Notes under the pieces: generated by a model
Told to the model about the DNA's origin: nothing
Database searches by the model: none
The model's input: the letters and a program-made list of their open reading frames with translations, nothing else
DNA from: a virus
Direction: 5' to 3' (one strand)
Virus record (IMG/VR): IMGVR_UViG_3300032050_000036
Coordinates: 1 to 64,000 of that record
Length of the DNA: 64,000 nucleotides
Shown: piece by piece, positions 9,201 through 54,780 of the stretch
Position numbering within the stretch: the stretch's first letter is position 1
Layout: each line of letters begins with the position of its first letter
Made by a program: the position numbers and the translations under genes

Positions 9201-12200
9201 TCAAGAGTAACAAAGAAGGTTGGCGGAGACATAGCATCTGGCGCTATTATAGGACTCAAGGAATATGTTGATGATGCTAGGTCTGCAGGACAACAGTTGG
9301 GTGCTGCAACAGTGCAAGGAACTCAGGCACAAAAAGCAGCAGCGTCTAGAGCCGCATTATATGGAACTGGTCCAATAGATCCAGCACAAAAATCATTGCG
9401 TCGACAACTACAAAGACAGGCAAGGCTACAAGAACTTGCAACAAAGAGAGCATATCAGCAATCTGCAATAACTGGCTTTGTAGCAGGAGGAGCAGGGGCT
9501 GGAGGAAATACTGGTGGCGGTGGAAATGGTGGACGTGGTGGATTCTTTGGTAGATTTAGAAGACCAACTCCAGCAGATGGGTCTGAGCCAAAACAAAGAA
9601 TGGGCATGGGTGGAGCAGCAATGGGTCTATCTATGGCTGCAGCAGCAGGATCAATGGCACCAGGTAAAGTTGGAGAAGTTTCTCAACAATTAATGATGCC
9701 TTTAATGGTATTATCAATGCTTGCTATGATGCCAGCAAAAATTGCAGGTGTTGTTGCAGCACTAGGTGTTTTAGCATATGCAATTATTTCAACAAGAATG
9801 GCTTTTGATAAAGCGCAAGACTCAATGATGAAATTAGTCGAGTCCACTAACTCAAGTACACAATCAATTGTTGATTTAAGTAAATTTGCAGGAACTGTAA
9901 GTGCTGGCGAAGTAATGAGAAGAAGAAGAAAAGATACACTATCTCCATTTGATGTAAAGCCAGGAAAAACAACATTTGGAGAAAGTTTTGTTCAGTCAGA
10001 AACTGGGAAGTCTATGCTTGCTGGTGTCGGTCAAAACATTAAAGCGGTAGGCAAAAAACAGGCTCAAGCAGACTTAACTAATCAATTGGTAACAGGAGTT
10101 ATATCAGGATCATTAACTCCAGCACAGGCCAGATCTATTGCTGGAAATATAGGAAAAGAACTTGGAGATTATGGTTTTGGAATTCAGGTAAATGCAAAAT
10201 TAATAGAACTTCTTGGACCTAATGGAGAAAATCTAATCAAAGATCCACTAACTATCAGAGTAAAAATGATTGAGGAAACTCGTGCAAGGGCTGGAATGGC
10301 TGCACAGGGCGCACGAGATGCTGGAGCATTTAATAAAGCAAGAAAGACTAATATACTTGGAGTATCTGATTTAGTTCAAACTACAGGCACTACTGCTGCA
10401 GGTGCAGGTTTAGGAGCAGGTATAGGTGCTGCAATTGGAACCGCTATACTTCCAGGAATTGGAACTGCTATAGGAGCAGTACTCGGAACTGGAGTTGGAG
10501 CCATCGCTGGTAATTTCTTAGGTCGTAAAGATAGACAAAGAAGAATAGGCGAAGCAAGCGGTGCATCTGTTGCCATGAATAAAGTAGCGCTTGAACAACA
10601 ACAGGAAATGGTAGATTCTTTAGATCTAGAATATGAAAAGAAAATTGCAAATGCAAAGGCTGCAGGAGATCAGGCTGAAGCAGAAAGATTAACTAACGAA
10701 TATATTAAAAATAGAAATGCTTTATTATTAGAAAATGGTAAAACAGTTACTGATATACAGACACAGTTTGAAAAATCTAAGGGGGCAACAAGAGAAGCCC
10801 TAATGACTGGTGTAGATAAAGCAATAACAAAGAAATATAAAGGTAGCGCTTTAGAAGATGTTGCACCTCTTGCAAAAACATTAATTGAAGACTCTGGAGT
10901 TTCACAAGAGCAACAATACACTTTAAAGATGCAACTAGCAACTGGAAATATAGATCCAATGCAAATGATTGATATGATGGAAATGTTTGGTAAGGATAGT
11001 AAAACACTAAGCAAGGTAGTTAATATAATTGGAAAGTTTGGTGGAACTTTTGCAAATGAAGTTCAGGGTATTGCTTCTATGTTTAAAAATAAAAAGACTG
11101 CAGCAAAGTTTATTGCCGAAATAGAAACAAAGAGTCCAGAAGAAGCAAGAAAACATTTAGACTTATTCTCAGATATTGCAAAGGTTTCCAATGTATTGGA
11201 TATTGATGTTGCTCTTAAATATTATCAAGAAAATCCAAAGGCAGCAGAAAAACTACAGGGTATTATAGATAAGATAAATGAGCAAAAAGGAAAGATTTCT
11301 TTAGAAGTTGCTGCAACCATTTTAGGAACTGAAGAAATGGAAGCATTAAGAAAAGATCAAGAATATTTTGATTCATTGGATCCAGTACAGCAAAAGGTAT
11401 ATTTGCAAACACTAACTACTGTTGCAAACCTTGAGGGTAATAATAAAGACGAATTAGAAAATTGGTTAAAGCAAAATCCAGGTAAAAGACCAATTGATTA
11501 CTACATAACTTCTGCACAAAAGGTAACACAGGTTTCCACAGATACAACCACTAAACCAAGCAAAGGCTCTTCTTCTGGAGCAGGAAAGGTAGACTCATCA
11601 CCATTAGATGAACTTGTAAAGAAATTAAGAGATGTTCGTAAAAATCAAATTAAGGTAACTGAGGGGTGGTCTGCATCTCGTAAAGTTTTAGATAATTTGT
11701 TTGGTGGCAAAAAAACAATTGATTTCTTTGGCGGTATAGAGCAAGATTTAACTAGGTTGGGCGCCAAGGGCAACTTTATAGAATTAATTGTTGGCATGGA
11801 TCCAAAAGAATACGAAAAAAGAAAGAACTCACTATTTAAGTTTGATAATAAAGGAAATATTATAGGACTTAAAAAAGATGCCAAAACTATACAAGAGGCT
11901 CTTAATTCCATTGTTGCTGGAGACTTCCAATCTTCATTATTACGTCAGCAACAAGAATTAAAGGATCAGGCTACAGCATATAATATTTTAAGAGAGGCTG
12001 GAGTTGGAGTTGCAGAAGCACATCAATTAATTGCAGATGCCGCTCTTGCTGCAATGATTGCTTCTGAAGGAAATAGCAAGAGTGCAAAGAAACTAATAGA
12101 TCTTTATAAAAAAGTTCAGGCTGAGCAAACAAAGTCAGATGCTAAAAAATCAGTACAGCAAGATATTGCAAATATAGAAAAAGAAAATGCTTTACGTAAA

Positions 12201-30772: not shown

Positions 30773-31049
30773 AAAAAATGAAAGCAAAAGGATAGGTGCA
30801 AAACAACACAAAAATTCTGGTAGAAATACTCATAAAGGTGACGCCACCTGGAATAACTTTACAGTAGATTTTAAAGAAGTTGGAAAATCATTTACAATCA
30901 ATAAGGACGTATGGGCAAAAGTGGTAACAGATGCTATTAAAAATGGTAATGACCCAGCAATTATTGTTATTATTGGAGATGGAAACAATAAGATTAGATT
31001 GGCTATAACTGAATTTGCTATATTAGAACAACTAGTGGATGGTGTATAA
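30765..31049 (+). CDS. PD-(D/E)XK nuclease, Holliday-junction resolvase-like
   Basis: NSGR..HKGDA...VDFKE motif. Confidence 0.65.
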   Translation: MSEKNESKRIGAKQHKNSGRNTHKGDATWNNFTVDFKEVGKSFTINKDVWAKVVTDAIKNGNDPAIIVIIGDGNNKIRLAITEFAILEQLVDGV

Positions 31050-31056
31050 TAGATAT

Positions 31057-31659
31057 ATGGAAACAATGGAACAAATAGAAAATATTATAGTAGACAATGT
31101 TTTAAGTGATGAAGATATAAAAAATATTTATGATATAGTCAATTCTACAGATTTTGAGACAACTATTGTTCAACGCTCAATGGGGCATAGAGCATATCTC
31201 GTATCTTTGGGAGAAGACATAAGGCTTAAACTTGAAAAAACAATTCAAGATATATATGGACAAGACTGGATCTTAAACGCATATCAGTTTGCAAGATATA
31301 CCACCGAATGGGGATATCAATTAAAACTATATCCACATTTTGATGACGCTTTTGAAGATCATAAACTAACTTTTGATGTTCAAATAAAAGGAACAAAGCC
31401 ATGGCCAATAGTTATAGAAGGAAACCCTATAACATTAAAAAATAATCAGGGATTGGTGTTTTCAGGTACAGATCAAATACACTGGCGTGAGTATTTAGAT
31501 TTTGACAGCAATGATTATTTTGATATGATTTTTTGTCATTTTACTAAAGTAAATGATCCAAGAGGAAAAGTTACCAAAGAGTGGATCGATAAAATGTCAA
31601 TTAAAGAAAAATATTGGAAAGAAAAGTGCAATATTCCTGAAGAGGCCATAGAGTTATGA
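31057..31659 (+). CDS. 2OG-Fe(II) oxygenase (leaderless, inserted in the replication operon)
   Basis: ARY...LYPHFDD...WPIVIE...L.NNQGLVFSG..QIHWR...MIFCHF; TATAAT 6 nt before ATG 31057. Confidence 0.8.
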   Translation: METMEQIENIIVDNVLSDEDIKNIYDIVNSTDFETTIVQRSMGHRAYLVSLGEDIRLKLEKTIQDIYGQDWILNAYQFARYTTEWGYQLKLYPHFDDAFEDHKLTFDVQIKGTKPWPIVIEGNPITLKNNQGLVFSGTDQIHWREYLDFDSNDYFDMIFCHFTKVNDPRGKVTKEWIDKMSIKEKYWKEKCNIPEEAIEL

Positions 31660-37780: not shown

Positions 37781-39844
37781 TTGTTGGAGGAAAGGAAAAT
37801 AAAAAGACTAATACGCATAGCACTAGCCAGTTTCTTGGCCTTTGGTTGGCTTATAGTGGCTCCTACAGAGGCTAACTCTGATGATCCAATAGCAATTGCT
37901 GCCCAAGAAATACAAGACCTTAAAGACAGCGTAGAAGATCTTAATTATAAAGATGAGTTTAATAATTTAATAAATATAGCAGAAGAAAAATATAATGATG
38001 CCATACAGGCTAAACAAGATAGAGATAATGCATACGATATATATGACTCTGCGGTAATAACAGAAGCCACGGCAGTTGAAGAAAAAACATTAGCCCAATC
38101 AGCAGTAGATGGACAAACAGTAACAGTTGCTACAGCATTACAAGATAAAAATGATGCACAAGACGCCTTAGATATAGCCAATTTAAATGTTCAAACAACA
38201 CAAGCAGCAATTTCAAATGCTGGTAATTCAGGATTACAATATACAGTATATTATCTTACAAGAGGGTTTGGTGGAGTAGCAATTCCAAGCGGTGTTATAT
38301 GTACTGGAGTTTGGAATTCAAATTCAATGCAGCCACCAGTATGCGGTAGATATGAAGATTTTATAGTTAAATTTACTGGAACCATTACTGTTCCCTCTCA
38401 TTGGACCTCAACATATTTTGCAGGGTATACAGATGATGGATTTAAAATGTATATTAATGGACAACTTGCAGTAAATAACTGGGTGGAACAGGGAGTTAGA
38501 TGGAGTTCGTACTCTCCAGTTTATGATGTTAGCCAAGATAAAACTTTAGATGTAGAAATTTGGTGGTATAACGGAGGAGGCCCAGGATACTATCATCTTG
38601 GATGGGCAATTCCTGGAGGTTGGACTGGAGCAGGTTGCGATTATACTGGTGGATGGGGGGTAGGATTTAGTTGTAATCTTAATACATTTTCATATGGATC
38701 TGGTGCAACACAAGCACAAATAGATGCATATAATGAGGCAGTATCAGCACAACAAACAGCACAAAACAATTATAATAATAAACTTAGTACATATAATTCT
38801 GAAGTTCAAAACCTCACAACATTAAATCAAAACCTAACAACCGCTACACAAAACCTAACAACAGCACAACAAAACCTAACAGATGCTTTGGCTGCAAAAA
38901 ATAATGCTATTTCTGTTTATAATCAAGCAATTATTGATATGGATAATGCAATACAAAATGCTTGGGATTATTATGATGAGCAATTAGAAAGAGAAATACA
39001 AATTGCTATTGCTCAGGCAGCAGCAAATGCTGCAGCGAATCAACCAACACCTGTAGCAAGTCCAGACCCTGAGCCAACTGTAGAACCAACTCCAGAGCCA
39101 ACCGTAGAGCCAACACCTGAACCTACAGTAGAACCAACCCCTGAACCTACACCAGAACCAGAACCAACTCCTGAACCTACAATAGATCCAACTCCAGAGC
39201 CAGAGCCAACACCAGAACCAGAACCAACTATAGAGCCTACGCCAGAGCCTACTACTGATCCAACTCCTGAACCTACTCCTGGACCTGAACCAACACCAGA
39301 GCCAACCCCTGAAATAGATGATGAAATAAAAGAATTAATTCCTGAAAAGGGTACAGGAACAGCAGAAGATTTATCTGGAGTTATTGCTAATCTTACAAGC
39401 AAAGATAATAAGTTAGTTACACTTTCACCTGAGCAAGTGGCAGCAGTTAGCCAAACCCTTAAGTCTTTGACCCAAGAAGCAAAGGCAGAGGTAGCGCAAG
39501 ACTTAGGTATCAAGGCATCAGAAGTTGAAAAGATTGCAGAGGCAATGAAGTCTGATCCAGAAATTGCTACAGCGTTTGTAGAGTTTGAAAGCAGAGCAGC
39601 AGAAGCGGGGGATTCAGCAATGCCATTTACATTAGCAGACGCTATCACTGAAGTACAAACAGAAGCGTTTTTAGCAGACCCACTTGGGACATTAACAGAT
39701 ATAGATTTTGAAAAAGTACTAAGTCCTACAGAATGGGGTAAGGATATGACAGATGATCAAAGAGAGAAGGTTCAAGAGGTAGTCATTCCTGTTATTTTGG
39801 TAGGAAATATTGTTAGTTCAGTTATGTCACTAAGGAGGTTATAA
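37781..39844 (+). CDS. Secreted PA14-domain protein with coiled coils and a Pro-Glu-Pro-Thr stalk
   Basis: Signal peptide; FTGTITVP...[12 protein letters not shown]...[10 protein letters not shown] (PA14); PEPT repeats; hydrophobic C-terminus; TGATATAAT at 37761. Confidence 0.75.
39041..39313 (+). repeat. In-frame PEPT/PTVE repeat tract
   Basis: About 90 aa of (E)PTPEPT-type repeats with varied synonymous codons. Confidence 0.9.
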
Positions 39845-41912: not shown

Positions 41913-42116
41913 ATGAATCATATGGGTATGGAAGACCTGTCTCCAGAGGAACAGGAATTTAGTATTTGGTTACAAAACGGCATCGAAAGAGGCTGGATTA
42001 GTGATCCTTATTGCCACACACATGACGGTGGCTATCAGTATATGAGTGAAGAAGAATTAGAAGAATGGGAAGCAGGAGGCGACCCATGTGAACATGTTTT
42101 GAGGATATTCATATAA
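41913..42116 (+). CDS. Conserved-looking acidic hypothetical protein
   Basis: GIERGWIS.PYCHTHDG...GGDPCEHV. Confidence 0.7.
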   Translation: MNHMGMEDLSPEEQEFSIWLQNGIERGWISDPYCHTHDGGYQYMSEEELEEWEAGGDPCEHVLRIFI

Positions 42117-43207
42117 TGAAAAAAATTTTTATAATTCTTGTTTTAATTTTTGGCATAACTCCAGCGCATGCAAATAATGGCAAAGATGCTACAGGAGATC
42201 CAAAAGTAGTAGCACTAATTCATTGGAATTCAGATAATACACAAGGCTGTTCGGGAGCATTAGTGGCCCCTCGTATTGTTTTTACAGCAGCACACTGCCT
42301 TTCAAGAATGCCAAAAAGTGGTAAATGGCAGCCAGACTATGACACAGAATTACCAGTTTCTGGTATGTTATCTGATAAAACTCCAATGTGGGTTTTATCC
42401 CCTGGCGAAAAAGTATATTTAGAAAATAATAAGCCAAATATAAATAGAGTAAAGGTTATTGCTCAATTTGCTTCAACAGAATACAAAGATTCTGGCTGTT
42501 TAAATAATGATAAAAGTTTATGTCATGGCTCTATAAATGATTTTGGTGTTTTAATTCTTGAAAAACCACTAGGAAATTCTTATTTTAAATATGCTTCAAA
42601 AGAAATTGTTCAGGAAATGGTTTTAAATAAATCAAAAATGTTAGCATTGGGATACGGAAGAAGTTCTGGTAATGATATTCAACCTAATCCAAATTTTATG
42701 GAAGTAACAGCAAACACTAAAGTTATGATTCAAAATAATAGTTTCTGTATTCTTACTAACAATAAATATTGTGAAGGATCTAATTTGGTTGTACATGCTA
42801 AAAATAAAGTTGGCGAACATTGGGGTGGAGGAGATTCTGGAAGTCCCCTATGGTATTTTTATCAAAACGAATGGCTTTATGTAGGAGCGATGAGTGGATC
42901 TGCTGGTTGTTCAGCAGAACATTATCCTAATGGCCCAACATGCCGAGATAAGTGGTGGAATGAAAATGGTTATGGAGAATACTGGACGGCTTTTTCTTAT
43001 AATGAAGTAATCTTAAAAGCAGAACTATTTCTAAAAACTCAAGAAGATAATGAAAATAAAACAAAAGAAAAACTATTGCCAAACCCTGAAATACAAAAAC
43101 AAACAAATATAGGTAAACAACTTAAGTGCAAACATAATAAAAGAAATATTATTATGAGCATAAAAGGAAAAAAATGTCCTAGTGGATACTCTTTTTATAA
43201 TGGATAA
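42116..43207 (+). CDS. Secreted trypsin-like serine protease
   Basis: Signal peptide; CSGALV, TAAHC, DFGVL, GDSGSP catalytic motifs; C-terminal C-x13-KCPSGY tail. Confidence 0.88.
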   Translation: MKKIFIILVLIFGITPAHANNGKDATGDPKVVALIHWNSDNTQGCSGALVAPRIVFTAAHCLSRMPKSGKWQPDYDTELPVSGMLSDKTPMWVLSPGEKVYLENNKPNINRVKVIAQFASTEYKDSGCLNNDKSLCHGSINDFGVLILEKPLGNSYFKYASKEIVQEMVLNKSKMLALGYGRSSGNDIQPNPNFMEVTANTKVMIQNNSFCILTNNKYCEGSNLVVHAKNKVGEHWGGGDSGSPLWYFYQNEWLYVGAMSGSAGCSAEHYPNGPTCRDKWWNENGYGEYWTAFSYNEVILKAELFLKTQEDNENKTKEKLLPNPEIQKQTNIGKQLKCKHNKRNIIMSIKGKKCPSGYSFYNG

Positions 43208-43658
43208 AATTAATAATTTAGACGAAAATGTTTTTATTATAAAAAATTTTTTAAGCAATGATGAGTTTGATGATGCATTGCGTGGAGATTTTAATCTTAT
43301 TAAATTAAAAATTTCAAATATATTTAATAATCAATACTCAGTCAAAGGTTCTGGAAGAATTAGAGTTCTTAGTGTTGGAGAGTTTATGGAACCACATTCA
43401 GACCAGCACAAAGATAGTTGTAAGTGTGGATATTGTTCTTTAGGGCATAATAATAAAAAAATATATGCTGCCGTTATATATTTAAATGATGACTATTCTG
43501 GAGGAGAAATATTTTATACTAATAAAAATATTAAACATAAGCCATCAGCCAATAGTTTAATTTGTCATCCAGCATCAGAAGAATATACACATGAGGTTTT
43601 GCCAGTCCTTACTGGAGAAAGAAAATCAATTTCATTCTTTTTAACTGATGGTGTATAA
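43200..43658 (+). CDS. 2OG-Fe(II) oxygenase, prolyl-4-hydroxylase-like
   Basis: PHSD...AVIYLNDDYSGGEI...HEVLPV..GER. Confidence 0.85.
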   Translation: MDKINNLDENVFIIKNFLSNDEFDDALRGDFNLIKLKISNIFNNQYSVKGSGRIRVLSVGEFMEPHSDQHKDSCKCGYCSLGHNNKKIYAAVIYLNDDYSGGEIFYTNKNIKHKPSANSLICHPASEEYTHEVLPVLTGERKSISFFLTDGV

Positions 43659-43667
43659 TAAATAAAT

Positions 43668-44333
43668 ATGACTTTTAAAATAAAAAACAATATATCTGGA
43701 TCAGAATTTTGGGTAGATTCTGAATTTTTAAATTTTCCAGAGTTAGAAGAACAATCTTTTATACCAAGTAAGTGGTCTTGTTATAATAAAATAGGAGATG
43801 ACTATGATAATAAAATTATTAAGCCTGTTAATAAATATGTACTAGAACTTTATCCAAAACCAGAAATTATACAAAAAACAAATAATAAAATAGTTTTAAG
43901 ACAAAAGACACATGCTGAGATATGGGTTGAGCCATTAAAACGTTATTCAGAAGAAACTCTTTATGCATTAGATAAATGTCATCAAAGACAGTTTTATCCA
44001 TCTAGTTTTAAAATTTTTTCAGAGGAGTGTTTTTTGGCAACGTATAGATTTTATATGCCATGGTTTCCTGACTTAAGAACAAACATATTTTTTAAAAATA
44101 TAGAAGACGAATTCTCTCCGTTTAAAGTTAAAAATGATGCAGTTGTTTTTTATCCCCCAGAAAAAAATGATAAATATGTTAACACATGCTTTATACATTT
44201 TAATATTAAAAAAAATGGACCACACATGAAAGACGATAGGTATGGTATCATAGATATAGGATCTCCAATGTATGACATGGAGTTAAAGTTGGATGAAGAC
44301 ATAATAGAAAAGATTGCTAATGAGTATGAATGA
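43668..44333 (+). CDS. Hypothetical protein (possibly DUF6065/dUTPase-like fold)
   Basis: RFYMPW...IIDIGSPMY resembles the neighbouring gene; TATAAT 8 nt upstream. Confidence 0.45.
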   Translation: MTFKIKNNISGSEFWVDSEFLNFPELEEQSFIPSKWSCYNKIGDDYDNKIIKPVNKYVLELYPKPEIIQKTNNKIVLRQKTHAEIWVEPLKRYSEETLYALDKCHQRQFYPSSFKIFSEECFLATYRFYMPWFPDLRTNIFFKNIEDEFSPFKVKNDAVVFYPPEKNDKYVNTCFIHFNIKKNGPHMKDDRYGIIDIGSPMYDMELKLDEDIIEKIANEYE

Positions 44334-45051
44334 AGAAGAGTATCAGCAAATATCTTTTATTGGGCATAAAAGAGAAGGATATCCAGAGCCAGAGCCTTCT
44401 TATAAAAAAATACCACAATGGTACAGAGATTTAGCAAAACATGGCACTAGCAATGATTTAGCGGACTTAGACCCAATTAATGATAGAGGTGGCGACGGAT
44501 CAAATGTTTCTACAAAATTGTGTATGCCATTTTTTGATGCAATGGCATTAGGATATCAGTATCCTTTAGAAGATGACTTAACAGTAACATTAGACAAAAA
44601 CGGTAAACCTAAACTTAGTTGGTCAAAAGATTTTATGTTAATTGATAAAAGACCAACTGTGGATATGGCAGTACCAAAAGATGTACACCCTATACATTTT
44701 GGAATAAAAATGCATTGGTTTTATGAAACACCTCCAGGGTATTCTTTATTGATGACCAATCCAATTAATAGGCCAGACCTCCCATTCTGGACCCCAACAG
44801 GGATTGTCGATTCTGATATATGGGGTTTACCAATCTTTATGCCTTTTTTTATAAAAAGAGACTTTGAAGGGGTAATAAAGTCTGGGACACCTGTTTTTCA
44901 AATGATACCTATCAAAAGAGAACAGTGGGAGATGTCGTTTGACACATCCAAGGAGTCTATAGAAAAACATGATCTAAGATCAGAAAACAGAAGATCGCAT
45001 ATTACAGCACATTATCGTAAATTTGCGTGGAGAAAAAAAGAATATAGATAG
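44320..45051 (+). CDS. DUF6065-like / dUTPase-fold protein
   Basis: KLCMPFFDAMALGY...ETPPGYSLL..P.N...GIVDSD...IKSGTPVFQMIPIKRE. Confidence 0.55.
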   Translation: MSMNEEEYQQISFIGHKREGYPEPEPSYKKIPQWYRDLAKHGTSNDLADLDPINDRGGDGSNVSTKLCMPFFDAMALGYQYPLEDDLTVTLDKNGKPKLSWSKDFMLIDKRPTVDMAVPKDVHPIHFGIKMHWFYETPPGYSLLMTNPINRPDLPFWTPTGIVDSDIWGLPIFMPFFIKRDFEGVIKSGTPVFQMIPIKREQWEMSFDTSKESIEKHDLRSENRRSHITAHYRKFAWRKKEYR

Positions 45052-45092
45052 ATGTAGTATAATGTATAAAGACCAAAATGAATGGAGACAAT

Positions 45093-45740
45093 ATGATTGG
45101 CACTGATAATTTCAAAGAACATAAATTTTTTGAAAAATATTTAAATAATGATTTAAATGATTTACAACAATTCTTAGAAAAAAAATATGAACTAATTACT
45201 TCGGCACGATTAAGAGGGGTCGAAGAGTTAGGGGATAAGGATCTAGCCTGGACTTCTTCTGGAAGTATATCTACCGTTAAGTGGCAAGAATATAATGTTT
45301 TTCAACTATATCATCCTGGAATTTATAATTTATTTAATGCAATTTCTAACACCATGAAAGAGGCATGCGAATACTATGGTATAGATTTTGAAAAAGAAAA
45401 ATATTATGTACAGGGATGGTTCAATATAAATAATAAAGATACTGGCAAACTAGATTGGCATGATCATGGAGATGGCTTTGCGCCAAGATTTCATGGATAT
45501 TATTGTGTAAATGCAGAGCCTTCATCTACATATTATAAATTATTTAACGATGATAATAAAGTAGTTGAAAATATTAATAAAAATAATAGAATGATCATAT
45601 CTGAAATGGGGCATCCACATGCAATGGGTGACTGGTCTTGGAGTGGTCCAAGAATAACCATAGCGTATGACATAATGCCAATTAAGTTGTTGATCGAAAA
45701 TAATCTTACAATTGAGCAACACTGGATTCCGTTACTATGA
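45093..45740 (+). CDS. 2OG-Fe(II) oxygenase
   Basis: GWFNIN...WHDH...FHGYYCV...HPH...RITIAYDI; GGAG RBS before ATG 45093 (alternative start 45078). Confidence 0.75.
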   Translation: MIGTDNFKEHKFFEKYLNNDLNDLQQFLEKKYELITSARLRGVEELGDKDLAWTSSGSISTVKWQEYNVFQLYHPGIYNLFNAISNTMKEACEYYGIDFEKEKYYVQGWFNINNKDTGKLDWHDHGDGFAPRFHGYYCVNAEPSSTYYKLFNDDNKVVENINKNNRMIISEMGHPHAMGDWSWSGPRITIAYDIMPIKLLIENNLTIEQHWIPLL

Positions 45741-46585
45741 ACACAATAGATGTTTTTATTTATGGATATAAAAGTAAACTTTTACCAGAGTCTGCTAGAT
45801 CAATTTTAGAAAATCAAAGCGGCAACTATCAAATAAATATAAAAGTTTATGATCAAATAAATTTAAACAGAAATGAAAAATTTAGTAATATTTCTTATAC
45901 GCATATTTTTTGGGATGATGTCAGATCTAAATTTTTATTTTTAGAAAATGAAATAAAACAATCAAATGCAGAATATTTTTTGTTTATTGATGGTGCAACC
46001 ATATTTCAAAAAAATTGGGATATGGAATTAGTTATGGGGCATGGAGGTAACAATGTTATTTTTTCTGGTAGACATAAAATAAATTTTAATAAAAATAATA
46101 TTTATAAATTTTATTCAGAATATACAAGGTCAGATCTTTCTTCAACAGAAATTACTAATTGGATAGTTAAAGATTTTGTTTTTATGAAAACAGAATTATT
46201 CAAGCAATTTCCATCTATATCTAGATTAAAGTATAGAGGATACGAAGAGGTATATTCTTTTTATGCTGCAGGAAAAAATATTCCAATTTTTGCAATCGCA
46301 ACAGCGTGGGCAGAAAACCATGAAGTTCCTATCGATAGTTTTGACTATCTTCCTTTTTCAATAAATAGTGGCTACAATGAATTAATCGATAACATTAAAG
46401 GTAATAATGAAATATTTTTAAAAAATCTAGATGGAGTTAAAAACCTATCAGAATTTCATTCATATGACTTTACTTTATTGTCCAAGGTCCCATTTATTCA
46501 AAATGACATAGAGTATGATCCAAGAATGGACCTAGACAATATGGATGGAGAACGCTTTCATAATGTTATTAAATCAATATATTAG
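45737..46585 (+). CDS. GT-A glycosyltransferase-like protein resembling GT60 (Skp1 hydroxyproline GlcNAc transferase)
   Basis: IDVFIYGYK...VYDQ...EYFLFIDGATIFQKNWDMELV...FVF...YRGYEEVYS matches the spacing of GT60 motifs as recalled; the DSH motif is degenerate. Confidence 0.5.
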   Translation: MNTIDVFIYGYKSKLLPESARSILENQSGNYQINIKVYDQINLNRNEKFSNISYTHIFWDDVRSKFLFLENEIKQSNAEYFLFIDGATIFQKNWDMELVMGHGGNNVIFSGRHKINFNKNNIYKFYSEYTRSDLSSTEITNWIVKDFVFMKTELFKQFPSISRLKYRGYEEVYSFYAAGKNIPIFAIATAWAENHEVPIDSFDYLPFSINSGYNELIDNIKGNNEIFLKNLDGVKNLSEFHSYDFTLLSKVPFIQNDIEYDPRMDLDNMDGERFHNVIKSIY

Positions 46586-46614
46586 ATATATGGTATAATG
46601 AAAAAGGAGGAAAA

Positions 46615-47178
46615 ATGATTACACAACCAGTAGTAATAGAAAATTTCATAGATCCAAAAGATGCTGAAGTTCTTCTAAAAGAAATGTCTAGTCCATCTGA
46701 GATAAACCCTTATCCTAATTACTATAAGACTAGATTTGGAGGAACTGGATATCCATATAATAAAACAGTTATTGAGTTGCACAAAAAATATTCTTTGTTA
46801 TCAAATAAAGTACATCAAGAATTAAATCCAGAAGAAACAAAAGAAATTAAAACATTCAAGGCTTTTGGTTCAACGTGGACTTCTGGTCAATACGGCCTTC
46901 CACATATTGATGATCAATATCCAGAAGAATTTATAGAATATAGCACAGTCATTTACTTAAACGATGAATTTACTGGAGGGAATATATTTTTCCCAGCACT
47001 GTCATATGAGTATGTACCTAAAAAATATTCAGGGGTATTCTTTTTAAGTAAAGGAAATCTATGGAAACATGGAATTACGCCAGTAGAAAGTGGAACCAGG
47101 TCAACATTGTTGTACATGCATACGACACAAACAGAGCATAAGGATGGATTTGTTATTATAGATCCAGACCTAAACTAG
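46615..47178 (+). CDS. 2OG-Fe(II) oxygenase, prolyl-4-hydroxylase-like
   Basis: PHID...STVIYLNDEFTGGNIFFP...HGITPVESGTR; TGGTATAAT at 46591 and AGGAGG RBS. Confidence 0.87.
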   Translation: MITQPVVIENFIDPKDAEVLLKEMSSPSEINPYPNYYKTRFGGTGYPYNKTVIELHKKYSLLSNKVHQELNPEETKEIKTFKAFGSTWTSGQYGLPHIDDQYPEEFIEYSTVIYLNDEFTGGNIFFPALSYEYVPKKYSGVFFLSKGNLWKHGITPVESGTRSTLLYMHTTQTEHKDGFVIIDPDLN

Positions 47179-47185
47179 GAGAGAA

Positions 47186-48007
47186 ATGGTTAATTTTAGA
47201 AATACTACATTTGCAATGCTAGAGAATCATCCAGATCAATCATCTATTGACTGGAAGTTTTGTACAAGAGACAACTATCTTAAGTTTGAGGAAATATTTC
47301 GTAAAAATGTGCTCTTCTTTGATCCATTTTTAGTAGAAGGGTTTTTTGAAAAACCTGACTTTGAAGAATTAAAAGGTATCTTAGAATCAAAAGATGTGCG
47401 TGAAATTGCTTATACTAAGCAAATGAATAAATGGGAAGATGCGGTTGAAATCCCTCAATATTTTTTTGATAAGGCGATTAAACGTACACAAGACCTTCTA
47501 GGCACCAACGATGTAGAGTTAGGATATTATCTATATGCTCATCATCAAATTACTGCTGAAGGACGCAAGCCATTCCTACAGGTTCATCTAGACTGGTCTC
47601 CAGGCTGCTACATGGTTGATCTTCATATCGGTGGTAATCGTGATTGGGGCTTTGTTGCTCACGATAAAGAGTTTATTACCAAGCCAAACGATGCAATTAT
47701 TGTACAGCCAGAACTAGACTTTCATTATCGTCCAGCATGGAATTCAGACGATCCAAATGAAAACTACAAAGTTTTATTTTTCCATCTTGTTCGTAAAGAT
47801 CATTGGAAAAATTTATATGGAGATGGCTTTATTAAAGATGCAGACTTCTTAGCATTTCAGAATCAGAGATTGCATATATGGCAAGAACTTTATGTTAATC
47901 ATGTAATATCAGTTCCTGGTCTACCAGCCCCAGTATTTAGTTCTGATGATGACTTAACAGAAGATGATAAAAGAATTTTTAATGTAGAAAAAAGGGTGGA
48001 AATGTAA
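47186..48007 (+). CDS. 2OG-Fe(II) oxygenase (same subtype as 31057)
   Basis: LQVHLD...DWGF...PNDAII...FHYRP...VLFFH. Confidence 0.7.
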   Translation: MVNFRNTTFAMLENHPDQSSIDWKFCTRDNYLKFEEIFRKNVLFFDPFLVEGFFEKPDFEELKGILESKDVREIAYTKQMNKWEDAVEIPQYFFDKAIKRTQDLLGTNDVELGYYLYAHHQITAEGRKPFLQVHLDWSPGCYMVDLHIGGNRDWGFVAHDKEFITKPNDAIIVQPELDFHYRPAWNSDDPNENYKVLFFHLVRKDHWKNLYGDGFIKDADFLAFQNQRLHIWQELYVNHVISVPGLPAPVFSSDDDLTEDDKRIFNVEKRVEM

Positions 48008-48684
48008 TGTTTACTTATGAAAAACTAGGAGATGGATTAATATATTATAAAAATATAATGCAGGATCCATATAAAATAATTGAAGATATAGAATTACTAA
48101 ATAACAAAGTTATTGAAGACTTAGAGAACAGGGTTGCTGGAGCAGAAGAAAGTTCTGCAAAGCCTTGGCATAATTGGGATCATGATCAGGACGATATGCA
48201 TTTACATTTTTGTAAACAAAGATGGCTACCAAGATCAGAAGATATGTCAAAAGATGATATTTATTATCAAGAACACTCCTCTATATCAGATAGATTATTT
48301 TTAGCATTAGACACAAGTTTTGAGCATTACTCAAAAGAACTATATCCTTATGCCTCAAGAAATATAAAAGGCAAAGAAGATAGAATGAGTATTTTAAAAT
48401 ATGAAAAAGCAGGGTATTTGCCTGCACACACAGACCATGGCTCAAGTAGCAGAACACTTTCTGTTGTTTTATATTTAAACGATAACTATGACGGAGGAGA
48501 GATAACATTTCCTCAAGTAGGAAACGGAGTAAAAATAAAGCCAGAGGCTGGAAGTGCAATATTTTTCCCATCAAATTATGTTTTTGTACATGAAGTTTCA
48601 GAGGTTTCAAATGGTATCAGATATGCTTTGCCTAACTGGTATCATAATATGATTAATAAAATATATACGGACGGTACAGAATGA
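48007..48684 (+). CDS. 2OG-Fe(II) oxygenase, prolyl-4-hydroxylase-like
   Basis: ILKYE..GYLPAHTD...SVVLYLNDNYDGGEITF...KPEAGSAIFFPSNY..VHEV..V..G.RY. Confidence 0.9.
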   Translation: MFTYEKLGDGLIYYKNIMQDPYKIIEDIELLNNKVIEDLENRVAGAEESSAKPWHNWDHDQDDMHLHFCKQRWLPRSEDMSKDDIYYQEHSSISDRLFLALDTSFEHYSKELYPYASRNIKGKEDRMSILKYEKAGYLPAHTDHGSSSRTLSVVLYLNDNYDGGEITFPQVGNGVKIKPEAGSAIFFPSNYVFVHEVSEVSNGIRYALPNWYHNMINKIYTDGTE

Positions 48685-51135: not shown

Positions 51136-51354
51136 ATGATAGTAAAAACATTAGAAGAGATGGAAAGCATAGTTTCAAATAATAAAAATTTATTTTGGGA
51201 CGGATGGACCGTAGTAAGTAGACATCAATCAAATAAAGCAAAATCTTCTAAAGATGGAATATATCTAAATAATAAATGGTATATATCTAAAAGATTTGAA
51301 CCGAATAGGGATGGATGGGACATACCAGAAAGACTTATCCATCAATATGCATAA
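51136..51354 (+). CDS. Hypothetical protein
   Basis: AGGAG RBS; LFWDGWTVV motif. Confidence 0.6.
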   Translation: MIVKTLEEMESIVSNNKNLFWDGWTVVSRHQSNKAKSSKDGIYLNNKWYISKRFEPNRDGWDIPERLIHQYA

Positions 51355-51628
51355 AAATAAATGGAAAGATAATGCGTTGTGTTTAGATTATGATACTAAT
51401 TTGTTTTTTGATAAATATGAAGAAGAGGTTTCATTTAGAGGTGCAATAGATAAGTTATGTCTTGAGTGTCCAGTTATAAAGACTTGCTTTGCAGTAGGAG
51501 TATCCGCTAAAGAGTGGGGTGTCTGGGGTGGTGTTTACTTGTCATCTGGAGAAGTCTCAAAAGAGTTTAATGAGCACAAAACAGAAGAAGTTTGGTCTGA
51601 TATATGGAAAAAAATGGTGATAGACTAA
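51347..51628 (+). CDS. whiB: WhiB-family Fe-S transcription factor
   Basis: W...ALC...LFF...CLECPV...C...WGVWGG. Confidence 0.92.
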   Translation: MHKNKWKDNALCLDYDTNLFFDKYEEEVSFRGAIDKLCLECPVIKTCFAVGVSAKEWGVWGGVYLSSGEVSKEFNEHKTEEVWSDIWKKMVID

Positions 51629-51632
51629 AAAT

Positions 51633-52997
51633 ATGGCAAAAATAATTATTTTTGATTTAGATGGGGTTTTAATAGATAGCAAAGATATTCACTATAACGC
51701 ACTAAATAAAGCATTATGTGATATTGATGCTAAATATAAAATATCTTTTGAGGATCATATTAAAATATATAATGGTTTGCCTACTAAAGAAAAACTAAAA
51801 ATACTTTCAGAAAAAACTAATTTAGATAAAAGTACATTTGATATTATTAATAAAAATAAACAAAGTTATACATTCGACATGCTTAACGATGTTTCTGAAG
51901 ATATAGAATTAATAGAGTTATTTAAATTAATTAAAAATAATAATATAAAAATATGTGTTGCTAGTAATAGTATAAGAAAAACAGTTGAACTAATTTTAAC
52001 TAAGTTAAATATTATTGATCTAGTAGATTATATTGTTAGTAATGAAGATGTAAAAAATCCAAAACCATCCCCCGAGATGTATTGGAAGTGCATGTCAGAA
52101 TTCAATACAATACCAAAAGATGTTGTTATATTTGAAGATAGCATAATTGGTAAAATTGCCGTTCTAGATAGTGGTGCCAGCCTTGTTGAGATTAAAGATA
52201 GAAAAGATCTAACCTTAGAAAAAATAAATAATGCTATAAATATTTTAAAATATTCCAAACATTCTGTCTTAAATAAAAAAATAAATATTGTAATACCAAT
52301 GGCTGGAAAAGGTAGCAGATTTTTAGATGCAGGTTTTTCATTTCCAAAACCATTAATAGATATAAATGGTATGCCAATGATAGAGTTAGTTGTAAATAAT
52401 ATTGCACTAGAAGGAAACTATATATTTATAGTAAGAAAAGATCATTATGAAAAATATAATTTGCTTGAAATGTTAACAAGAATTGTTCCCGATTGCAAAA
52501 TTATAACTGTTGACGAGGAGCAAAGCGGGGCAGCATCAACCTGCTTATATGCAAAAAATTACATAAATACAGAGGATCCGTTATTTATTATAAATTCTGA
52601 TCAATATATAGATTGGAATCCTAAAGAATTTTTATACAATAATGTAATAAAAAATTTAGACGGATCAATATTGTTGTTTAAGTCTACTCATCCAAAATGG
52701 TCTTATGCAAAATTAGATGAATTCGGCATGGTAGTAGAAGTTGCCGAAAAGGTAGTTATAAGTGACAATGCTACTGTCGGTGGATATTACTGGGGAAGTG
52801 GACACAATTTTGTTAAATACGCAGAACAAATGATAGAAAAAAATATTCGTGTAAATAATGAATTTTATGTGTGTCCAGTATACAATGAGGCAATAAAAGA
52901 TAACAAAAAAATTGGATCATATTTTATTAATAAAATGTATGGATTGGGCACACCAGAAGATTTAGAAAAGTTTATGAGGTTTTATAATAATGATTAA
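51633..52997 (+). CDS. HAD phosphatase fused to a BcbE-like sugar nucleotidyltransferase
   Basis: FDLDGVLID, SNS, KPSP, FEDS; then IPMAGKGSRF...PKPLI...NSDQ...VAEK...NEFYV...LGTPEDL. Confidence 0.85.
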   Translation: MAKIIIFDLDGVLIDSKDIHYNALNKALCDIDAKYKISFEDHIKIYNGLPTKEKLKILSEKTNLDKSTFDIINKNKQSYTFDMLNDVSEDIELIELFKLIKNNNIKICVASNSIRKTVELILTKLNIIDLVDYIVSNEDVKNPKPSPEMYWKCMSEFNTIPKDVVIFEDSIIGKIAVLDSGASLVEIKDRKDLTLEKINNAINILKYSKHSVLNKKINIVIPMAGKGSRFLDAGFSFPKPLIDINGMPMIELVVNNIALEGNYIFIVRKDHYEKYNLLEMLTRIVPDCKIITVDEEQSGAASTCLYAKNYINTEDPLFIINSDQYIDWNPKEFLYNNVIKNLDGSILLFKSTHPKWSYAKLDEFGMVVEVAEKVVISDNATVGGYYWGSGHNFVKYAEQMIEKNIRVNNEFYVCPVYNEAIKDNKKIGSYFINKMYGLGTPEDLEKFMRFYNND

Positions 52998-53431: not shown

Positions 53432-54022
53432 ATGGAAAATAGAATATTATATGGACATAAAACTCAGCCAAAATTATTAGAAAATTTTAATTTTAAATAT
53501 ATAAAAAATTTTGATATTTTTAAAATTAAAAACGAAATATTATTATTTGATAAAGAGTGGAATGAAGACTCCTCTAGACAAGAAAAATATGCTGCTCATT
53601 CTAAAACATTTTCTTATTTTTGTTATGATTATTCAGAGTTTTCTCAACAAGATGAAGCATATACACTACAAACCAAAACAACAAATGATAAAGTATTGGA
53701 ACTAGTAGAGCCTATCATTAAAGATTTGGAAGAAATTCATAAAGGTAAAAGAGGAAAAGTTCTTTTTATAAAATTGCCGTCTCGGTGCGAAATTAATATA
53801 CACAGAGATAGAGGATATTATTTAGGAATAATAAGAAGGCATCATATACCAATAATAACCAACAATGAATGTATTTTTGAGGTTAACTGTGATATGCTTA
53901 ATATGTTGGAGGGAGAGTGTTGGGAAATAAATAATTCAAAATATCATTATGTTAACAATAATGGTGAAACAGATAGAGTTCATCTAATGATAGATATTAT
54001 TCCTAACAAATTTATAAAATGA
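53432..54022 (+). CDS. 2OG-Fe(II) oxygenase, aspartyl/asparaginyl beta-hydroxylase-like
   Basis: IHRD...RHHIPIITN...GECWEINNSKYHYVNN.G.TDRVHLMID. Confidence 0.85.
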   Translation: MENRILYGHKTQPKLLENFNFKYIKNFDIFKIKNEILLFDKEWNEDSSRQEKYAAHSKTFSYFCYDYSEFSQQDEAYTLQTKTTNDKVLELVEPIIKDLEEIHKGKRGKVLFIKLPSRCEINIHRDRGYYLGIIRRHHIPIITNNECIFEVNCDMLNMLEGECWEINNSKYHYVNNNGETDRVHLMIDIIPNKFIK

Positions 54023-54780
54023 TAATACAAATTATAGGGCTTCCTGGCTCTGGTAAAACAGAATTAGCAAAAGCATTAAAAGAACGTATAAATGCCATCC
54101 ATCTTAATGCAGATGAAGTTCGTGCTACAGTAAATTCTGATCTTGGATTTAGCCATGAAGATAGAATTGAACAAGCAAGACGAATGGGTGAAATGGCTCG
54201 CCTGATATCAAAACAGGGAGTTGCTCCCGTTGTTGTAGATTTTGTTTGCCCTACAGAATTAACTCGTGCAGCGTTTGGTAGACCAGACATTTTGATCTAC
54301 ATGGAAACAATTGACGAAGGTAGATTTGAAGATACTAATAAAATGTTTGAAACCCCAAGTGATTTTGATATGGCTTTTATCAGTCATGAATGGAATGCAA
54401 ACGAAAAAGCAACAGTAATAATTAAACAGTTTAACTTACATGATTGGTCTGCGCCCACAACACTAATGCTAGGCAGGTATCAACCATGGCACGAAGGTCA
54501 CCATGCATTGTATAAAGAGGCGGGGAAGCGAACAGATCAGGTACTTCTTGGAGTACGTAATACATACAATACAAGCGAAAAAGACCCACTAACATTTGAT
54601 CAGGTAAAGAATTATATCTCAAAGGATGAATTCATGGATGGTGCGATGGTATTAAGGCTGCCTAATATTACAAACATTGTTTATGGTCGTGATGTTGGAT
54701 ATAAGATTGAGCAAGTAGATTTGGGGGCAGAGATTCATGCTATATCGGCTACGCAAAAACGTAAAGAAATGGGTATCTAA
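54019..54780 (+). CDS. cysC: Adenylyl-sulfate kinase-like domain fused to an HxGH nucleotidyltransferase domain
   Basis: GLPGSGKT, NADEVR...DLGFS.EDR, FVCP; GRYQPWHEGH ... ISATQKR. Confidence 0.75.
   Translation: MIIQIIGLPGSGKTELAKALKERINAIHLNADEVRATVNSDLGFSHEDRIEQARRMGEMARLISKQGVAPVVVDFVCPTELTRAAFGRPDILIYMETIDEGRFEDTNKMFETPSDFDMAFISHEWNANEKATVIIKQFNLHDWSAPTTLMLGRYQPWHEGHHALYKEAGKRTDQVLLGVRNTYNTSEKDPLTFDQVKNYISKDEFMDGAMVLRLPNITNIVYGRDVGYKIEQVDLGAEIHAISATQKRKEMGI

Follow-up and report, generated by a model that had tools for sequence, protein, structure and literature searches.

The presence of several 2OG-Fe(II) oxygenase genes packed around a glycosyltransferase gene in a phage genome raises the question of what such a cluster modifies. 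The locus studied here belongs to IMGVR_UViG_3300032050_000036, an uncultured lake phage whose hosts are probably actinobacteria, and the window is the whole stretch analysed, i.e., 64,000 nucleotides from positions 1 to 64,000 of that record. The initial annotation had proposed five oxygenases surrounding a GT60-like enzyme, together forming a hydroxylate-then-glycosylate protein modification system. Inspection of the sequence at 43182-48684 located the genes and motifs where they had been placed, and eight closely packed genes, all on the + strand, are found there (g1-g8). These are listed below with two possible accessory genes and the repeat-protein genes discussed later.

g1, 43182-43658, + strand: P4H-type 2OG-Fe(II) oxygenase (PF13640, motifs)
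g2, 43668-44333, + strand: presumed dUTPase-fold protein, distantly paralogous to g3 (hhalign)
g3, 44314-45051, + strand: DUF6065 protein, fold like that of dUTPase/dCTP deaminase, C70 invariant (phrog_7084, DUF6065, AF2)
g4, 45078-45740, + strand: HxH...H...H metal-type motif, possible 2OG-FeII_Oxy_5-like oxygenase, candidate (conserved residues, Atlas neighbours)
g5, 45737-46585, + strand: GT-A glycosyltransferase of GT60/GT27-like type whose DxD site is non-canonical (AF2, fold search, PF11397 in family)
g6, 46615-47178, + strand: P4H-type 2OG-Fe(II) oxygenase, core member of the block (PF13640, motifs)
g7, 47186-48007, + strand: invariant HxD (134-136) and H180, candidate oxygenase (conserved residues)
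g8, 48007-48684, + strand: P4H-type 2OG-Fe(II) oxygenase, core member with the best P4H match (PF13640, PDB sequence matches)
Possible accessory gene, 51633-52997, + strand: fusion of a HAD phosphatase/mutase with a sugar-phosphate nucleotidyltransferase (PF13419, PF00483)
Possible accessory gene, 53432-54022, + strand: Asp/Arg beta-hydroxylase-type oxygenase (PF05118)
YSFTP repeat proteins, genome positions 89607-91715 and 100692-101840, past the end of the window

The three genes reported to carry the P4H-type signature were borne out. Matches to PF13640 (cut-off 27 bits) were obtained for g1 (44 bits, E 4.6e-11), g6 (28 bits, E 4.5e-6) and g8 (62.9 bits, E 5.7e-17), and YLND.[YF].GG, HxD, the second His and the Arg are all present in each, with the catalytic HxD...H...R residues intact in sequence (HSD...THEV...GERK in g1 and HID...KHGI...GTRS in g6). 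H141, D143 and H195 are invariant in the g8 family and R205 nearly so. The best PDB sequence match of g6 was P3H1 (E 9e-4), and those of g8 were PKHD-type hydroxylases, the Bacillus anthracis P4H and P3H1 (E 5e-5 to 8e-4; 2e-4 for the B. anthracis P4H, 3itq/5hv0). g1 aligned with g8 at 98.7% in hhalign; it is an additional copy and not universal to the block. PF13640 also holds enzymes acting on substrates other than proline.

The count of five oxygenases did not hold for g4 and g7, which have conserved His/Asp motifs, yet no match to either was found in Pfam, NCBIfam or PDB sequences. In g4, H128, D129, H130, H139, H181 and R192 are nearly invariant; its relatives fall into >1000 clusters, and PF13759 occurs in 79-90% of the members of its ESM-Atlas neighbours. 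g7 showed a weak match to phrog_2954 and occurs solely in cassettes of this type. Two extra oxygenases had also been claimed elsewhere in the window. One is the PF05118 protein at 53432-54022 (E 3.5e-15), while the other, the ORF at 31039-31659, is a paralogue of g7 (hhalign 96.9%) and likewise lacks a family match.

As described earlier, VFIYGYK, VYDQ, EYFLFIDGATIFQKNWD and GYEE are all present in g5, and so is DGA at the DxD/DxH site. In the structural comparison suggested with the initial annotation, the AF2 model (pLDDT 95.4) matched 8v9q in VIA with Z 16.9 over 239 aa and 8uhv with Z 15.6, the top matches being polypeptide GalNAc-transferases at a sequence identity of ~10%, and the Foldseek matches were GT-A enzymes. 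Judged from the model, g5 is a GT-A glycosyltransferase of GT60/GT27-like type. The GT60-like label stands for the fold and for the family, in which PF11397 (GT60) is the commonest Pfam match (37 of 102 members, best E 1e-8), but not for the protein itself, which scored below the threshold (E 0.069, 13 bits against 21) and lacks the DxH. GT60 and GT27 are protein O-glycosyltransferase families, and g5 is unlike the T4-type DNA glucosyltransferases; a shared GT-A fold alone leaves the acceptor unfixed.

The initial annotation left g2 and g3 undescribed. No Pfam match was found for g2, which is present in 33 of 36 loci and aligned with g3 in hhalign (84%, E 7e-6). g3 matched phrog_7084 (E 2e-34), DUF6065 was matched by 20 of the 29 members of its family, and C70 is invariant in the family alignment. 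The 22 top-ranked VIA matches of its AF2 model (pLDDT 78.5) were all dUTPase/dCTP-deaminase-fold chains, with 3t60 the best (Z 9.0, 126 aa, rmsd 3.1), and 2yzj was the best in Foldseek (E 7.8e-4). These members suggest a nucleotide-type ligand, which speaks against repeat proteins as the substrate of the block.

The expected co-occurrence of P4H-type oxygenases with a GT60-like gene across related phages was found. The block recurs in 36 viral contigs of IMG/VR, an arrangement far beyond chance; g2, g3, g5, g6 and g8 are found as a set in 33-36 of the 36 loci (g6 in 35). The identity of g5 among relatives is 27-41%, as against ~80% for the capsid protein and DnaB. The two GT61 genes, the nucleotide-sugar enzymes (two nucleotidyltransferase-HAD fusions) and the APS kinase reported elsewhere in the window do exist. 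One of these fusions, 51633-52997 (PF13419, E 6.5e-27; PF00483, E 2.5e-10), has homologues in G029 and G017 (55-58% identity) and a partial one in G079, with none in the eight other genomes compared; from its domains it is a possible accessory and a candidate for donor-sugar supply. The PF05118 gene is also possibly accessory to the block, and its homologue in L313 lies immediately ahead of the cassette.

The fibre-region repeat proteins carry an N-terminal folded domain, either Fn3 or PASTA, along with [FY]-x-F-[ST]-P units by the dozen and an end rich in Cys. The two YSFTP proteins of this genome have 49 and 26 units; the cassette lies ~41 kb from the nearest of their genes and ~52 kb from the second, distances that weigh against these proteins as its targets, and a DUF6065 paralogue (103401-104111) is found 1.5 kb past the latter. 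In 10 loci a repeat gene precedes the block at a distance of 6 bp to 1.2 kb: its end is 6-7 bp from g2 in five loci and 429 bp in a sixth (L024), and in four loci of a second lineage (capsid 35% identical) it ends 0.6-1.2 kb ahead of the cassette, a layout shared by three further complete genomes of that lineage. g4 adjoins a repeat-protein ORF in G029, G017, G079 and G083, and g7-like genes come after repeat-protein genes in G078 and G004. Repeat flavour also varied with cassette type, the type that has g4 and g7 (G000, G059) having YSFTP, types B and C having FGFSP and type D having FGFTP.

Repeats were present in all six cassette-bearing records that are at least 89% complete, and the glycosyltransferase in all six repeat-bearing records that are at least 90% complete. 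Six relatives picked by the capsid protein only were all concordant, with both features in G079 and G083 and neither in G078, G082, G080 and G081; the exact test on these six gave ~0.07, in a co-variation sample that is small and phylogenetically non-independent. G004 has the cassette, but its contig stops before the second repeat locus, so that it does not bear on the co-variation. Modules are also replaced: orthologous scaffold proteins in G078, G082, G080 and G004 bear other Pro repeats (VTPP, FFPP, SPV) and have their own PF13640 oxygenases, DUF6065 or g7-like genes within a few genes downstream. PEPT-type repeats, which had been named as a test substrate, and collagen-like proteins persist, the former unchanged, in relatives without the cassette and are therefore not its specific target.

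With slightly better than even confidence, we regard the eight genes as a cassette that tailors repeat proteins of the phage itself, those of the fibre region, through hydroxylation of proline and O-glycosylation. With 2-oxoglutarate, Fe(II) and O2, the P4H-type enzymes g6 and g8, plus the extra copy g1, would hydroxylate the proline in every repeat unit. g5 would next transfer a sugar, which sugar being conjectural, from a nucleotide sugar to the repeat units. The acceptor would be either the hydroxyproline just formed, as with Gnt1 and Skp1, or the adjacent Ser/Thr, T-P sites being where GT27 and other GT60 enzymes act. g2 and g3, with their dUTPase fold and conserved Cys, and g4 and g7 could be other tailoring or helper components.

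Among the closest known systems is the hydroxyproline glycosylation of Skp1 in Dictyostelium and Toxoplasma by the prolyl 4-hydroxylase PhyA and the GT60 enzyme Gnt1 (PMC3515798, PMC11570480). In both cases a GT60-like GT-A enzyme accompanies a 2OG oxygenase of the P4H type. In Dictyostelium Skp1 the modified residue, Pro143, sits in F-T-P, a tripeptide also found in the phage repeats. However, the Skp1 pathway acts on one proline of one cytoplasmic regulatory protein and then adds four more sugars, whereas the candidate target here is dozens of tandem repeats; g5, unlike Gnt1, is below the GT60 threshold and has no DxH, and the multiple oxygenases and dUTPase-fold proteins of the cassette have no counterpart in that pathway. 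GT27 GalNAc-transferases and the GT60 GlcNAc-transferases of protist mucins are the best structural matches to g5 and glycosylate Thr/Ser beside Pro in repeats, but g5 has no lectin domain and has lost their Mn-binding DxH and C-terminal His. The PBCV-1 prolyl 4-hydroxylase and the Mimivirus L230 lysyl hydroxylase-glucosyltransferase act on the virus's own Pro/Lys repeat or collagen-like proteins. Those are giant viruses of eukaryotes with PAPK or collagen GXY repeats, unlike the phage units, and L230 is a single fused enzyme rather than a multi-gene cassette. In mycobacteriophage virions, structural proteins are O-glycosylated by actinophage-encoded glycosyltransferases; no hydroxylases, dUTPase-fold partners or aromatic-Pro repeats are known to take part.

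Other explanations have to be weighed against tailoring of the repeat proteins. Synthesis or modification of a small molecule is improbable, though to be taken seriously: the product would be a secondary metabolite derived from a peptide, or else a modified nucleotide sugar, with the oxygenases and dUTPase-fold proteins acting on a free metabolite and the glycosyltransferase attaching a sugar to it. Metabolite synthesis was proposed for the tandem dioxygenase arrays of cyanophage Syn9 (Iyer, Abhiman, de Souza and Aravind 2010, PMC2938197), and that array as described fits g2 and g3; the nucleotide-binding dUTPase fold of g3 and the nearby nucleotide-sugar enzymes and APS kinase point the same way. 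However, halogenases and a JmjC enzyme belong to the Syn9 array but a GT60-like transferase such as g5 does not, and no repeat-protein partner is described for it (PMC2938197). Our block showed no gene for an NRPS, an ATP-grasp enzyme or a halogenase, polypeptides are the substrates of the nearest families of the glycosyltransferase, and in two lineages the cassette adjoins, and varies together with, Pro-repeat proteins. We give about the same small weight to the possibility that g5 is catalytically dead in this phage and serves only as a binding or scaffold subunit, the repeats being hydroxylated and not glycosylated. D85-G86-A87 stands where the family has S-D-D, and position 211 is Ser in g5 and His in 95 of the 102 members; from these residues, g5 is without the canonical metal site and may work in a different mode or be inactive here. 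Against inactivity, the DxD site varies throughout the family, with K/R/Q there in one type, D39, Q40, W59, D60, W94, D95, S110, G111, K165, G168, Y213 and D257 are conserved in the family and in g5, and the gene is intact and retained in all type-A relatives.

Modification of host proteins or envelope during infection, in place of the phage's own proteins, appears less probable still; translation factors or ribosomal proteins might be hydroxylated, for instance, or cell-wall components glycosylated. In this genome the block adjoins a lysin and an Ntn-hydrolase gene rather than the tail module, and g8 matches PKHD-type hydroxylases; bacterial PF13640 enzymes include the EF-Tu prolyl hydroxylase and PKHD/PiuC-type enzymes. 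On the other hand, other cassette types lie directly 3' of a repeat-protein gene at the 6-7 bp gap, cassette gain and loss tracks the phage repeat proteins, and the cassette diverges much faster than core genes, like receptor-binding modules. Very improbable is hypermodification of DNA or nucleotides by base hydroxylation and then glycosylation, like the TET/JBP-plus-glycosyltransferase systems of other phages. Base oxygenases are known in phages (PMC13229309), the block has dUTPase-fold proteins, and g8 has a sub-threshold Tet_JBP match (E 0.0063; 16 bits, cut-off 34.9), but PF13640 fits g8 far better, the glycosyltransferase is GT60/GT27-like, neither a base hydroxymethylase gene nor a DNA-binding partner was found among the scanned subset of window ORFs, and the block is linked to repeat proteins.

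The proposed hydroxylate-then-glycosylate protein modification system keeps its enzyme families and its conserved block, and gains a proline-repeat candidate substrate from gene adjacency and co-variation, while three of its five oxygenases are borne out and two members of the block are dUTPase-fold proteins. Since the block is kept or lost across related phages along with the F-S/T-P repeat proteins, it most likely decorates those proteins.

The region 43182-48684 of the window is occupied by eight plus-strand genes that overlap or are separated by gaps of no more than 29 bp:

43182-43658, plus strand: g1, predicted P4H-type oxygenase
43668-44333, plus strand: g2, predicted dUTPase-fold protein
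44314-45051, plus strand: g3, predicted dUTPase-fold protein
45078-45740, plus strand: g4, metal-motif protein
45737-46585, plus strand: g5, predicted GT-A glycosyltransferase
46615-47178, plus strand: g6, predicted P4H-type oxygenase
47186-48007, plus strand: g7, metal-motif protein
48007-48684, plus strand: g8, predicted P4H-type oxygenase

The layout g2-g3-(g3' or g4)-g5-g6-(g7)-g8 was found again in 36 IMG/VR loci, in four arrangements (types A-D). The loci were retrieved with a 9-sequence alignment of g5; the g5 sequence alone recovered no related loci, and an alignment of 102 sequences contained no stretch conserved enough for searching. Cassette proteins are far more diverged than core proteins, g5 being only 27-41% identical in comparisons that give about 80% for the capsid protein, DnaB and RecA. 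The type D loci come from another lineage, whose capsid protein shows 35% identity. A related capsid protein is encoded by at least 586 viral contigs and the lineage is thus abundant. Cultured phage records gave no matches to the region (blastn) or to g5 (tblastn). In a promoter/terminator scan, promoter-like sites did not exceed their frequency in shuffled controls, and terminator-like sites coincided with no operon boundary. Immediately ahead of the cassette, and sharing an overlap with g1, lies a trypsin-like serine protease gene (window 42116-43207; AAHC...GDSGSP) with a hydrophobic, signal-peptide-like N-terminus, which was matched in one of the 11 relatives compared (G083, 31% identity, elsewhere in the genome).

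The window covers the first 64 kb of the IMG/VR record that carries the cassette, which is 113.5 kb long and has direct terminal repeats. WhiB is a hallmark of actinophages, and a WhiB-family gene is present at window 51296-51628 (PF02467, E 4e-12); for the record, WhiB is also placed at 51362-51535. Since the major capsid protein is also about 42% identical to its counterparts in Streptomyces phages and the minor-tail-protein-like gene resembles actinophage genes, the host is probably a freshwater actinobacterium, and the low G+C content of the record is in keeping with such a host.

Five oxygenases had been claimed for the block. Three of them, g1, g6 and g8, can be classified as P4H-type 2OG-Fe(II) oxygenases by their PF13640 scores (44, 28 and 62.9 bits, respectively, all above the cut-off of 27) together with the residues read in their sequences, i.e., HxD and the distal His of the iron triad and the 2OG-binding Arg. 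Across the g8 family, R205 varies only rarely and H141, D143 and H195 not at all. The closest PDB sequence matches of g8 were PKHD-type hydroxylases, the P4H of B. anthracis and P3H1; the latter two, together with the linkage to proline-repeat genes, indirectly indicate peptidyl-proline as a candidate substrate. The other two, g4 and g7, stand as candidates only: both contain conserved metal-type motifs, and neither matched a curated family in Pfam or NCBIfam. For g4, PF13759 (2OG-FeII_Oxy_5) was a lead from an Atlas feature only and was matched neither by g4 nor by 24 relatives. A paralogue of g7 is encoded at 31039-31659. One cluster of g7 homologues, P0199, carries a precomputed PF01755 (GT25) annotation, perhaps owing to a fusion, or to a GT25 gene lying next to it. 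Searches of PDB sequences with profiles of g2, g3, g4, g7 and the glycosyltransferase (GT) family returned nothing meaningful.

The remaining genes of the block, g2 and g3, were left undescribed in the initial annotation and are predicted to be dUTPase-fold proteins. An hhalign comparison relates the two (84%), and g3 matches phrog_7084. The model of g3 (pLDDT 78.5) most resembled dUTPase and dCTP deaminase in Foldseek, and in VIA, an exhaustive structural comparison, the 22 highest-ranking chains were all of the dUTPase/dCTP-deaminase fold (Z 9.0 to 5.1). The predicted structure is therefore assigned a dUTPase/dCTP-deaminase-like beta barrel, a Z near 9 being moderate. C70 of g3 is invariant in 29 sequences; the class of dUTPase-fold proteins with a conserved cysteine is drawn from Iyer et al. 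2010 (PMC2938197). With PF19541 (DUF6065) g3 itself scored 19.7 bits, short of the 26.6-bit cut-off, while a match at E <= 0.1 was given by 20 of the 29 members, and a paralogue in G082 matched at 98 bits. Among cultured records, g3 matched only hypothetical proteins, from haloarchaeal HF1/HF2-type viruses and one cyanophage. In about 49 records of haloarchaeal tailed viruses (HF1/HF2, HRTV, HJTV) these are lone hypothetical homologues of 31-34% identity located beside tail genes (e.g., AF222060.2, 48119-49003), and at the one such locus inspected, that of HF2, no cassette surrounded the homologue. Nothing relevant on DUF6065, YSFTP or FGFSP was found in the literature searched.

The product of g5 had been described as GT60-like. 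Its AF2 model (pLDDT 95.4, pTM 0.92) has a GT-A fold, and the structural searches bore out the expected match: Foldseek gave at least 500 matches at E <= 0.001, those listed being GT-A enzymes (among them heparosan synthase, KfiA, Mimivirus R699, GalNAc-Ts, SpsA and TarP), and VIA gave 50 GT-A-type chains with Z from 16.9 to 9.8, headed by polypeptide GalNAc-transferases (8v9q, Z 16.9, 239 residues aligned; 8uhv, Z 15.6). On the predicted structure, g5 is thus placed in the Rossmann-like GT-A fold. The proposed GT60 motif order holds for the family, which comprises 120 representative clusters: 37 of 102 aligned members matched PF11397 (GT60, Gnt1-type) at E <= 0.1 (best 1e-8), and 25 of the 102 matched PF00535 (GT2). 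It fails at the DxD/DxH site, and g5 itself is below threshold, scoring 13 bits where 21 are required (E 0.069), in an alignment limited to residues 76-100. Gnt1-type GT60 enzymes are characterised by UDP-GlcNAc as donor and a peptide acceptor with Hyp or Thr/Ser. The DxD/DxH metal motif expected after strand 4 is absent from g5, which has D85-G86-A87 instead; the majority sequence at this site in the family is S-D-D, and the GTs of type C loci (L024-L031, L034, L037) have Lys, Arg or Gln there and no acidic residue, suggesting a metal-independent GT-A variant. D39, Q40, W59, D60, W94, D95, S110, G111, K165, G168, Y213 and D257 are conserved in the family. Because the metal site varies while these other positions are retained, we read the family as GT-A enzymes not dependent on the canonical metal site. 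The possible alternative is that this particular copy is inactive; the near-invariant His211 of the family is Ser in g5.

Repeat proteins of the fibre region, built of [FY]xF[ST]P units, are the candidate substrate of the cassette. Two are encoded in this genome beyond the window:

genome 89607-91715 (L309 5607-7715): YSFTP protein 1, 702 aa, 49 units, PASTA domain, TSP1-like modules
genome 100692-101840: YSFTP protein 2, 382 aa, 26 units, Cys-rich end

The five thrombospondin-type-1-like Cys modules of the first protein (TSP_1, E 1.7e-8) together with PASTA form an unusual combination in a phage. The second is preceded by the minor-tail-protein-like gene and followed, 1.5 kb behind, by a DUF6065 paralogue. 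A 676-aa neighbour considered as a tail protein was rejected, being a ribonucleotide reductase. Every near-complete cassette-bearing relative scanned (G029, G017, G036, G023 and G030) encodes a like protein, in which an Fn3 domain is followed by FGFSP, FGVFGFSP or FGFTP units. The DNA pattern F-[ST]-P-xx-F-[ST]-P misses the period-8 FGVFGFSP repeats of G079 and G083, which a peptide periodicity scan detects. The FGFSP and FGFTP variants, too, escape exact-motif searches. Adjacency was observed in several arrangements. Among type C loci, the gap between the end of the repeat gene and g2 is 6-7 bp in five cases and 429 bp in a sixth. The repeat gene of type D precedes the cassette by 0.6-1.2 kb in four loci and three complete genomes, and in type B genomes g4 adjoins the repeat-protein ORF. 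The GT was present in all six repeat-bearing records at least 90% complete and in 19 of the 29 repeat-bearing records overall, counts that are small and come from related genomes.

Relatives selected by the capsid protein alone served as controls. The GT and the repeats occur together in G079 and G083, and G081 has none of the GT, the repeats or cassette-type genes. The capsid protein of G078 is 99% identical to that of this phage, yet G078 is without g2, g5 and g6; its PASTA-type orthologue has VTPP repeats, and behind it lie a gene for a PF13640 oxygenase and two genes resembling g7. G082 and G080, both without a GT, have an Fn3-type orthologue with FFPP repeats. In G082, at 86808-94972 on the minus strand (L340), it is followed by five Pfam-confirmed PF13640 genes and two DUF6065-type genes, with a sixth P4H-like ORF detected by phmmer on the other strand, and in G080 g3-, g8-, g1- and g6-like genes lie near it (11.8-16 kb). 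These FFPP loci resemble a form of the system limited to hydroxylation. Downstream of the SPV repeats of G004 come one P4H-type and one g7-like gene. Because G078, G082, G080 and G004 each pair other repeats with their own enzyme sets, the enzyme sets and repeat sequences appear to have been swapped together. In agreement with such joint exchange, most of the islands that could not be aligned with G078 by blastn were made up of the cassette and the repeat parts, along with genes for sugar nucleotides and GTs and a portion of the minor-tail-like gene. Also unaligned were a few unannotated segments and about 6.4 kb of a 2680-aa ORF with (GSTG/GSTD)n repeats (window 6285-14327).

Other repeat proteins do not follow the cassette. 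The PA14-domain protein at window 37781-39844, with long (E/T)PTP repeats, is 55-92% identical in seven of the 11 relatives, G078 included, and weak or absent in G079, G023, G004 and G030; as it is conserved in G078, it appears not to be linked to the cassette. PEPT peptides, proposed initially as a substrate to test, therefore lost their standing, the PEPT-linker protein being kept in relatives without the cassette. PEPT and collagen-like repeats were both rejected as cassette-specific substrates, the respective proteins being 92% and 90% identical in G078. The two collagen-like (GXY) fibre proteins (genome 84743-85627 and 85637-86356; L309 743-2356), one with a CBM5/12 module, have homologues in relatives without the cassette. 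Elsewhere, an APS kinase whose C-terminal part weakly resembles a cytidylyltransferase (window 54019-54780) is 59-69% identical in four relatives, absent from two contigs and 84-94% identical in eight relatives, where it is conserved at least as well as the capsid and replication proteins. This points to a strong constraint on a sulfation-related step.

The best-supported reading of these comparisons is that the cassette is a tailoring system for the fibre-region repeat proteins, in which g6, g8 and g1 would hydroxylate prolines and g5 would O-glycosylate the resulting Hyp or a neighbouring Ser/Thr. The GT accompanies F-[ST]-P repeats and is missing with FFPP repeats, which hints, in a small sample, at a Ser/Thr or [ST]-Hyp acceptor. 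The cassette could possibly modify DNA instead; with PF12851, the family of TET/JBP DNA base oxygenases, g8 scored 16.2 bits, below the cut-off of 34.9. Synthesis of a metabolite or modification of host proteins could also possibly be its function. For tailoring of the repeat proteins, a widespread, defined cassette is tied to a candidate substrate that can be synthesised, (YSFTP)n or (FGFSP)n, by the adjacency of the genes, by their joint loss in close relatives and by repeat flavours that match the cassette type, and the question thus becomes testable at the bench with peptides and recombinant enzymes.

Among known systems, those nearest to it are the Skp1 PhyA/Gnt1 pathway, the GT27 and GT60 mucin-type transferases, the Syn9 dioxygenase array, PBCV-1 P4H and Mimivirus L230, and mycobacteriophage virion glycosylation, but none of them unites all the parts present in the cassette. 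If the tailoring system is confirmed, bacteriophage virion proteins would, to our knowledge, be shown for the first time to undergo tailoring of the hydroxyproline and glycan type, and the system would provide a function for the DUF6065 dUTPase-fold proteins and a GT-A family working without the canonical DxD. More generally, and at somewhat under an even chance in our judgement, aquatic phages may coat their fibre-region proteins with extensin- or mucin-like, hydroxylated and glycosylated aromatic-proline repeats, built by exchangeable cassettes (P4H-type oxygenases, dUTPase-fold proteins, g4-/g7-type proteins and a GT60/27-like transferase) that are swapped with the repeat sequence. Of the unexplained genes in aquatic phages, those for 2OG-Fe(II) oxygenases rank among the most frequent, and they are mostly filed as auxiliary metabolic genes. 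If this tentative generalization is true, part of that pool would be virion-tailoring enzymes, and the repeat and its cassette would diversify together as one host-range or anti-recognition module.
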